From positions 3,523,227 to 3,587,226 of the forward strand of contig CM082579.2 of the NCBI GenBank assembly GCA_040954595.2: a stretch of 64,000 nucleotides of DNA, written 5' to 3'. This document shows positions 40,701 to 43,999 of the stretch, piece by piece. The translations under genes were made by a program, and so were the position numbers. Every line of letters starts with the position of its first letter. Position 1 is the stretch's first letter. The notes beneath the pieces are model-generated. The model ran no database searches. It was not told the origin of the DNA and worked only from the letters and a program-made list of their open reading frames with translations. The DNA is from Balanoglossus misakiensis (Eukaryota > Animalia > Hemichordata).

Positions 40701-43700
40701 GCTCATCGGTCTTGATCTCAAGTTATCTCTTTTAGTTCAATTTCTCGAGTACCGCGACTATATATACATACGTGAAATATTCCTGACTTGGATTTTGTCT
40801 TGTCGAATTCAAGGTCACGTTCATGGTGTTGAGGGCGCTCTGGGGAATCCACCGTCCATCGATGACCGTTCCGTTAGGATACCCGCAGTCTGGCGTGTTC
40901 CAAGCGTTGCCGCAGCCTACCCACGGCAAAACGTCCGCAAAGGAGGCGAATATGTAGTAGATGGCGTAGCAAATGATGACGTTGTAGTAGATGGTGACTA
41001 TGCATGATATGACCACCATGGAATAGCCCACACCTGCAAGACAAACGGTCGAATTTATTATAATGCAAAAGAAATTCCCACCTTCAGTTGATACCATCAT
41101 CGTACAATTTTGCGACATCACCGTATGATCATTCTAAATTCACGGGCTTGCTAATGCATACACATGGTAAAAATATTTTGCAGAGTGCGGTACCAGATAT
41201 TTTTTGAAGAGACAATCATGGCTGTCACAACACATGTCAGTGTAACCAAAATAAAGAGCAACGATTGTCCCTTTATGTCATTAGCTGGCCGCTTACCTTT
41301 GAAAAGTGGACAAATCTCCCATATTGTAACCGGTCCCTCGCTTGCAAATTGGCCAAACGCCAACTCCAAGAAAAACAGGGGAATTCCAGCAAGGAATAAA
41401 AAGATTGCGTATGGAATCAAAAATGCCCCTGAAATAAAAGAGCAGTAAGTTTTTCTTTGTTAAAATACCGAACATTTTTTTCGGTAATAAATTTTACGTC
41501 CAATGAAGGTCGAGGCATAATGTTAGGGCGGGCAAAAGTCTTAGCGTCGCAAATGAAATTTTAATATTCGATGGCAAATACGAACACAGTAGTTTTCATA
41601 CGTATGAATGTTTCATGTCCAGAGATTGAGTATTTCAATAATGCCATTGTATCCCTACTTACCTCCACCGTTTGCGTAGCAGAGATACGGAAACCTCCAA
41701 ATATTCCCAAGACCAACTGCATAGCCAATACAAGACAGCCAGAAATCCAGCTTTCTGGACCAGTTACCGCGGGCTGTATTCTCATCGCCTTTAAAGACCA
41801 CTGGACCAGGACCAGTGTCTTCTTCGCGATATTTCTGTGAAAATGGCAGACTGAACATGTAAGTGGTCGTGGGAATTCCAACTGTCGTCCGGACAACAGT
41901 GTAATAATGGTTAGACGCACTGCATTTTATGATTAAATGTCTTGAAAATTGTGTTTTTTTCCCTCTGAATGACTACGCCACAAGTCAGTCAAAACTTTGA
42001 ACCCAACATTAAAAGTTAATGAAAAGATTATCTGTTCTTCAATACTTCCAATCGGGGTTACGTAATGCACATTTGCCACTGATGCTACTGTTGTTGTTGT
42101 TGTTGTTGTTATTTGTTGAATTCATTCTCACTATGTGAAAATTCTCCCGTGTGGAGATAACGACGTCACCACATAAAACACTGTCTGTAGTTGACACAGG
42201 CTGACCACATTTTATATTTTAATCCGGTTGCAACCCTTTCTATATATACCCTTGTGGATCGATGTTACAGCCGATACATAATAGAGTTGCTCCATTCATT
42301 GTATTCTATAATCGTCTAAGCTCGAAAACAGGAGTTGATGTACAGAATGTGGTGCAGGGAAATGCGATGCGCCTGTCAGCACACATGACAGCTGGCCCTC
42401 GGCCTCATTCGGGCACATTCCAGGTAACCTAAATCACGGTGGAGTGACCGTGCCTAAATTGTTGGTTGTAGCATCGGCTATTATTATATGATCGCGTTTA
42501 ACGTGCGGATTTTCTAATTCATGAGAATGTGATGTTTTATGGGCCACTTTCAGTGGAATTCACGCTCGCGTGCATAGCTGTAGGAACACTTTTTCGTGAC
42601 GAGCGACGGTCACTGAAGTCAGAATAATTTGCATTAATGCGGCATTCACTCTTCACTATTAAGTGTATACACGTGGTCATTGTTGGTCGTCGATCTCGGC
42701 TCATCAGCACATAGCTTGATCGGCCTATCCTTGAGGTCAAATGGGTATAGCGATTTGCGAACTCATAAACAGTTATGAACATGGGACATGTGGAAACGAC
42801 AGTCCCCACCCTCGGGCACGCGAGCCGCCGTCGATGTATGTGCATAGCTGGCACGTGTTGGAAATTTTCCAGAGCACACCGGCGTACATCGAACGGTTCA
42901 GCAGTCGCACATGTTGTCAGTGAAAAGTAGGCCTATGTTGTAGCAGAAAGTTTTCAGCACAAATCAACAAAATTCGGACTCTGATTCTTTGACTAAGAAG
43001 TAACCGTATGCGAAAACATGAACAAACACGCATCGCTGAATAATTCAGTATCGTCGATCGCTCTCTCCCCTCACCCCCGGGCGTTTGACCATACTTACCG
43101 TAGACTTGAGTTCCATGTCCATGTTAGCGGGTTCAGTATCTGCGGGGGCGTTAACGTTCCTGTTGTGGGGAAAAGTTCATTATTTAAACAAAAAAGTAGT
43201 TTCAGTGTGCTATCGCCTTGTTACTCACACAACTTTCACTGACACTATTCGAATGTAATACTGTTTTCAGGTATATAAACATACGATCGTCAGGGACGCC
43301 GACATACACCGGCCGGGTCAACGCGTTGTTGTCTTTTGAAACAGAGAAAGGAAGTGACGTTTTCTTTTGTTTTAAACGCAGGAGACAACACTTCTGTAGA
43401 ACGCACCCAGGGACGCACCATTATTAATTGATTGGAGAGGGCGGATGGAATTCATTGATTTCTCTTTTAAGTTGGCGTTTCACCTGGTATATATGATAAT
43501 TAGGCAAACAGATCCGGTATTGGTACCGTACTTTTGTCCCTCACGGCCACGGCTATGGCAGTATCCGGGAGTCGATCGTCGTATTCTAGTCAATGTTGAA
43601 TACACCGGCCTACGCGTCTAAAAAAACTAGGCATTTTGCATCACTAAAACAGTTGTAGAATTTCAGTGGTTTATGGAAAAAGATGTTTGAAAATTGACCC

Positions 43701-43972
43701 CTTAGGCCTACTCACTTGACGGTACCGGCCTCGTGGACAAGAAGCCCCGCATGGCCCCGTAAAACCCCGCACTCTATGAGGTCCGTCTTGGTAGCGACTT
43801 CGAGGGTGGCAGTTGAATCGTAGCCATTGCTTGCCAGTGTTTCACTGTAGCGTTCCAGGCGAGTTTTCTTCAGAAGGGCCCGGACCGATCCGTTGACGTA
43901 GGAAGGGGGAAGCTGTGATGGCGTGCCCTCATTAGGAGGGGTACTGTCATCCGCAATCTCTTCAGAACTCAT
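37703..43972 (-). CDS. SLC6 sodium/chloride-dependent amino acid transporter, paralog A (glycine-transporter-like), 711 aa including an N-terminal SAM-like domain
   Basis: 14 coding exons: 43972-43716, 43159-43099, 41834-41663, 41428-41297, 41033-40772, 40636-40504, 40363-40125, 39764-39640, 39448-39336, 39194-39066, 38972-38873, 38632-38526, 38267-38094, 37834-37703; all GT-AG and in frame (2136 nt); [61 protein letters not shown] at 37359-37354. Transporter core is certain; linkage of the first two exons is inferred from phase. Confidence 0.92.
43716..43972 (-). CDS. Exon encoding a sterile alpha motif (SAM)-like domain
   Basis: [50 protein letters not shown] matches the SAM pattern (V..WL..l.L..Y...F...gyd....l...t..DL...Gi..GH...il); acceptor ttttaacag| at 43994, donor AA|GTGAGT at 43716. 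Confidence 0.72.
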
Positions 43973-43999
43973 CCTCGGGTTGGATTAGTCCGACCTGTT

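Follow-up and report, generated by a model that had tools for sequence, protein, structure and literature searches.

A gene on the minus strand of the analysed window, i.e. a 64,000-nt stretch of Balanoglossus misakiensis DNA, very probably encodes a real protein in which a SAM domain is fused in frame to an SLC6 transporter. Both component domains are common, but their combination is a real, ancient domain architecture that is apparently undescribed.

Between positions 43972 and 37703, 14 coding exons, all with GT-AG borders, can be read from the window sequence as one open frame of 711 aa, with a single stop at 37705-37703 and introns of 93-1264 nt (GT-AG in 13/13; Table 1). A preliminary description of this DNA had proposed such a 711-aa protein with SAM and SLC6 parts in one frame, and the proposal is borne out by the 14 exons and by orthologous fusions in two phyla; exon 1 with its TAA, ATG and phase-2 donor, the 61-nt exon and the exon at 41834-41663 all lie where it had put them. 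An acceptor AG directly precedes 43994, and the in-frame TAA lies upstream of the ATG. As a chance control for the 61-nt exon, we considered every AG..GT segment lying between exons 1 and 3 that is open and keeps the frame (n=79); three of these have strong splice signals. The donor of exon 2 is a perfect GTAAGT, and in the comparison with the Ptychodera linker this exon comes out top of the 79, though only modestly so (142 vs 135 for the runner-up); its omission shifts the frame out of SLC6. The predicted joining of exons 1, 2 and 3 in B. misakiensis is modelled from sequence. Next to exon 1, a perfect (ATC)41 repeat (window 44003-44126) ends 8 bases before the start of the SAM exon, so that the coding strand has hardly any polypyrimidine tract there; the repeat may affect inclusion of this exon.

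Table 1. Features of the SAM-SLC6 gene and of the adjacent paralog (positions in the window)
Feature	Position (nt)	Strand	Description
Exon 1	43716..43994	-	Short 5' UTR with in-frame TAA, ATG at 43972, residues 1-86, phase-2 donor AA|GTGAGT
SAM domain in exon 1	43721..43891	-	Residues 28-84, five helices
Exon 2	43099..43159	-	61-nt linker exon, phase 2 to phase 0, two in-frame Met codons
Exon 3	41663..41834	-	End of N-tail and TM1 of SLC6 core; Pfam SNF 61 bits
Exons 4-14, SLC6 core	37703..41428	-	Core 83% identical to Ptychodera XP_070554270.1 (P0001)
Exons 4-7	41428-41297, 41033-40772, 40636-40504, 40363-40125	-	
Exons 8-11	39764-39640, 39448-39336, 39194-39066, 38972-38873	-	
Exons 12-14	38632-38526, 38267-38094, 37834-37703 (stop)	-	
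Gene B, adjacent SLC6 paralog	32050..35812	-	12 exons, 650 codons open from 35812; no SAM

Exon 1 encodes a SAM domain. In agreement with the earlier assignment, it exceeds the Pfam cut-offs of both SAM_1 (26.7 bits, cut-off 23) and SAM_2 (23.3 bits, cut-off 20.5). The orthologs straddle the SAM_1 cut-off, with P0001 (19.8) and P0003 (21.6) below it and P0005 (25.6), P0124 (24.2), P0127 (24.9) and P0176 (26.9) above. The expected five-helix bundle was also obtained, i.e. the AF2 model based on a 15-row alignment has helices at residues 28-36, 40-48, 54-59, 62-68 and 72-84, with a pLDDT of 91-95 over residues 31-80. The best seven VIA-align rows for this model are all SAM domains (Z 8.5-9.6), and the Foldseek rows are SAMs throughout, none of them reaching E 0.001. 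By sequence, the nearest solved SAM is that of SHIP2 (E 2e-4). Among atlas features, the best score for the SAM region was 0.86, which is at the level of a lead only.

The fusion is not restricted to this genome. When the SAM exon was the sole query, one protein was retrieved among 196 candidates, i.e. XP_070554270.1 of the acorn worm Ptychodera flava (P0001, 720 aa), which aligns end to end with the B. misakiensis protein (546/724 identical, 75%). This SAM is present in 10 of the 128 SLC6 proteins fetched, from six species: besides the hemichordate P. flava, these are four sea urchins (Diadema antillarum, D. setosum, Lytechinus pictus and a second Lytechinus, presumably L. variegatus judging from its accession series) and one sea star (Asterias amurensis). 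Since a word-based search missed P0176, which was found via its cluster, and since one search behind the count covered the best 120 of 286 matches, this taxonomic range is a lower bound. A sensitive profile search gave 39 matches. The three best are short, contain a SAM only and most closely resemble the echinoderm SAMs; one match (P0004) has SNF, and the remainder are unrelated SAM or repeat proteins. No SAM+SNF protein from outside hemichordates and echinoderms was found among the matches listed. A metagenome contig scan with the SAM alignment gave 81 pattern matches, none of them confirmed, and the atlas clusters matching full-length P0176 (clusters of 50 or more) carry SNF and no SAM family. 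P0002 from Intoshia was rejected as a SAM carrier, its extra segment being a duplicated TM1. The next-best SAMs belong to unnamed proteins with varied domains, none of which was identified as the donor gene. P0181, an unnamed 1958-aa translation-factor GTPase-like protein, matched the SAM profile weakly (E 9e-5).

Because orthologs occur in two phyla, the fusion is far better supported than from the window alone. It is very unlikely that the SAM exon is a separate small gene, or encodes an 86-aa peptide by intron retention, and that predictors have fused it to the transporter. All support for the splicing comes from gene models, the unspliced exon-1 frame, with the donor read through (AAG TGA), stops at 43714-43712, and four short SAM-only proteins are found in the database (P0138-P0140 and P0180). 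However, a stop at the exon end is what is expected of a phase-2 GTRA donor, and P0180 and P0139 end near where the match to the full-length proteins would continue, as might single exons called on genomic contigs. Moreover, gene models from six species in two phyla contain this fusion, in every case on the orthologous transporter, and none of seven matches was a stand-alone relative with other domains.

Trees were calculated from the transporter core, with the SAM left out; they were midpoint-rooted, and their rows exclude vertebrate GlyT1 and GlyT2 as well as amphioxus. For the FastTree analysis, proteins below 560 aa were dropped, as were six rows that were odd or nearly duplicated others and a further six without the TM1 motif; the 108 rows used gave a clade of 15 hemichordate and echinoderm rows with a support of 99. 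The clade was recovered by IQ-TREE from 40 hand-picked FastTree rows (SH-aLRT 99) and by a mixture-model tree of 27 rows (100/99), and every SAM carrier included in the trees sits within it. The SAM+SLC6 architecture marks an ancient clade of hemichordates and echinoderms, two groups that split in the Cambrian or earlier. In a set of 175 proteins, a SAM profile built from echinoderms alone placed the SAMs of both hemichordates, at 62.6 and 59.6 bits, ahead of the best outsider (54.2), a lead over generic SAMs of only 5-8 bits. The simplest reading of these relationships would be a single SAM gain before the two groups separated.

The pattern of conservation also bears on whether the SAM matters to the protein. 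Identity to the echinoderm orthologs is 45-53% for the SAM, 51-56% for the core and 2-5% for the linker. If the SAM were translated without serving any function, or acted as no more than a stability tag, this would fit the existence of isoforms and paralogs without it. However, such a reading is very unlikely, given that the SAM is about as conserved across phyla as the membrane core while its flanks are unalignable, and that two intact copies are kept in Lytechinus.

In both Lytechinus species, the two SAM versions differ at 5 of 75 residues and have different N-termini, which suggests, from the protein models, duplicated alternative first exons. SAM-less forms are found as well: P0125 (Lytechinus X3) and P0177 (Asterias X2) correspond exactly to the long proteins cut short at the N-terminus, their start Met lying after the SAM, and the Ptychodera paralog P0006, which has no SAM, starts at about the position of the exon 2 Met codons. 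We infer that these in-frame codons are possible starts of a SAM-less form in B. misakiensis, too. No SAM is present in the crinoid ortholog (two annotated isoforms), in the A. rubens record or in P0046, which would fit loss and incomplete annotation alike. Just after the short-isoform start Met, the echinoderm orthologs P0003, P0005, P0125, P0176, P0177 and P0046 share a Tyr-x-Val-Val motif, presumably resembling a tyrosine sorting signal, which is missing from both hemichordate N-tails.

The transporter core is that of an SLC6 protein, with the Ptychodera ortholog P0001 scoring 721.5 bits against Pfam SNF (profile 1-522 of 524). A full-length AF2 model of P0001 calculated without an alignment reached a pLDDT of 41.8 and was unusable for checking the 12-helix LeuT fold. 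The best solved relatives of the Ptychodera ortholog are GlyT1 (693.5 bits, with the sequence alignment spanning residues 125-703), human GlyT2 (681.4) and PROT (629.9), the scores of GlyT1 and GlyT2 being nearly tied; these matches begin at residue 123 or later and leave the SAM uncovered. Together with G147 in TM1 and W401 in TM6, these nearest relatives place the gene in the SLC6 amino acid branch I (GlyT1/GlyT2/PROT/ATB0,+). In TM1, the amino acid branch has Gly where the monoamine transporters have Asp. The TM6 Trp is in common with GlyT1, GlyT2 and ATB0,+, to which it is limited according to the available part of PMC9599917. Three residues before it, G398 matches a Gly of GlyT1 that permits sarcosine, and in TM10, E566 matches a Glu of GlyT2 and ATB0,+ that is tied to the third Na+ (both from PMC9564218, available in part). 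At the sensor position, that of LeuT I359, the gene has Met (M501), in contrast to Leu, Thr and Ser in the three vertebrate transporters. G398, W401, M501 and E566 all recur in each of the other six full clade rows compared, whereas P0006 matches neither the TM6 nor the TM10 pattern and has Thr at the sensor position.

Based on these residues, we infer a concentrative 3-Na+ carrier of glycine or small neutral amino acids. The substrate call is a weak one because ATB0,+ shares the TM6 Trp and is nevertheless broad-spectrum, i.e. the Trp alone does not fix specificity (sections of PMC9599917). The lineage seems to be missing from the glycine transporter set of PMC8699752, as far as that article was available: the N-terminus of Strongylocentrotus purpuratus GlyT2.2 matches the sea urchin protein P0128, which falls outside the SAM clade, and, judged by eye, none of the three S. 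purpuratus GlyTs matches the urchin SAM clade in the TM1 region.

Gene B falls outside the SAM clade in the trees. A six-frame scan of the 64,000-nt window with a custom SAM profile found exon 1 as the sole SAM, so that the domain is indeed absent from the adjacent paralog, as had been stated. Since gene B is a distant paralog outside the SAM clade, this absence is no loss. A possible first coding exon of gene B, also without SAM, lies at 36518-36595 (minus strand; 26 codons from an ATG, phase-0 GTGAGT donor). At the TM6 sensor, gene B carries Phe in place of Trp, and its C-tail is acidic and rich in proline; it therefore probably transports a different substrate. Elsewhere in the window are a Kelch-like BTB-BACK-Kelch gene divergent from the transporter (50440-54830, plus strand), an open frame of 950 codons that is of low complexity and unmatched in Pfam (22682-25534, minus strand) and a CCAT/CCAC microsatellite-like array of about 6.2 kb with a GC skew near -1 (9234-15496).

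The preliminary description had called the architecture one not known from the SLC6 family. This holds in so far as no published description of a SAM+SLC6 fusion was found in the open-access literature searched, but the architecture is not unique to the B. misakiensis genome. In PMC8699752, the main text does not contain 'sterile alpha', and none of the helix-5 motifs of the clade SAMs occurs in the supplement, where long sequence runs are incomplete; the available part of PMC11817407 mentions an urchin slc6a5 that is not further identified there. Two Lytechinus pictus records already bear both domains in the automatic Pfam annotation, and the scores of P0001 and P0003 just below the SAM cut-off may explain why the fusion went unnoticed. 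The protein would represent a natural SLC6 transporter whose N-tail bears a folded interaction domain, retained since hemichordates and echinoderms separated, and the isoforms with and without SAM offer a clean comparison in the sea urchin, an established laboratory animal.

SLC6 N-termini are cytosolic, and the SAM, about 40 residues ahead of the core, is predicted to lie on this side of the membrane. On balance, our favoured reading is contact between SAMs, by which the transporter would be clustered or anchored; self-association and binding to a partner SAM are roughly equally probable, and SAM-less isoforms would likely escape such control. If true, this would be a new way to regulate the SLC6 family: the known oligomer interfaces are formed by membrane helices and depend on lipids, and a 2020 review saw no published evidence for a role of the N-terminus in quaternary arrangement (both PMC8247324, available in part). 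Sixteen positions are invariant in 6/6 aligned SAMs, including Y51 in the mid-loop and R72, G73 and A75 at the start of helix 5. Y51 aligns with the mid-loop Trp of SHIP2 and G73 with the helix-5 Gly of EphA2, making them the putative equivalents of Trp1221 and Gly954, a Gly/aromatic pair that forms contacts in Eph/SHIP2 SAM-SAM complexes (PMC5993539, available in part). A head-to-tail contact would fit because both faces are conserved. A point against a clustering or anchoring role is that some proteins do without the domain, i.e. the Ptychodera paralog P0006, both crinoid isoforms and P0046.

However, the SAM could also bind something other than a SAM, i.e. a lipid of the membrane, an adaptor for trafficking, a kinase or the cytosolic face of the transporter itself, and thereby gate activity or surface delivery; we regard this as possible but rather unlikely. 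The end-helices of known SAM-SAM interfaces are basic, and Eph SAMs are monomers despite a conserved mid-loop (excerpts of PMC5993539). Here, the basic end-helix patch is largely missing and small residues take its place: after the Gly-His of helix 5 come A75 and G76 (G or S in the orthologs), R72 is the one conserved Arg, a single acidic residue is kept in the mid-loop, and the domain is net neutral (7 K/R, 7 D/E). Furthermore, kinase docking and lipid binding are known from SAM domains, too (parts of PMC5264588), the SAMs of p63 and p73 tie for the top structural rank (Z 9.4 and 8.9), and the linker is probably long enough to fold back onto the cytosolic face. Against this stand the invariant Gly/aromatic pair on both faces, typical of SAM-SAM contacts, and, for RNA or acidic lipids, the lack of an evident conserved basic cluster.

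Returning to SAM-SAM contact, the oligomerisation or scaffolding module suggested earlier stands in that the SAM is real and fused in frame, whereas its role is still a proposal. It is tempting to speculate, tentatively, that in this ancient ambulacrarian SLC6 lineage a self-assembling SAM builds transporter arrays or retains the carrier in a compartment, with first exons encoding SAM A, SAM B or none switching assembly on and off. If so, alternative first exons would provide a genetically encoded on/off handle on SLC6 oligomer function.

The SAMs of SHIP2, Caskin and Eph proteins are the nearest solved ones by sequence and among the top by structure, with identities of at most about 38%; in contrast to the SAM described here, SHIP2 has more acidic mid-loop residues and EphA2 a basic helix-5 patch. 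The top VIA-align match is the SAM of Arabidopsis Tric1 (Z 9.6, rmsd 1.7 over 61 residues, 18% identity), a SAM-bearing mitochondrial membrane tRNA-import protein, which ties with the p63, tankyrase and p73 SAMs, reflecting a fold in common and not a function. As a model for a possible mechanism, SMSr/SAMD8 comes closest: this ceramide phosphoethanolamine synthase is an enzyme with a core unrelated to SLC6, but it is also a multi-pass protein with an N-terminal SAM, which drives oligomers and ER retention and requires L62, G63 and K66 for oligomer formation (PMC5264588, available in part). By spacing only, L62 and K66 would correspond to R72 and G76 of the B. misakiensis protein, and the end-helix Gly of SMSr and DGKdelta is kept.
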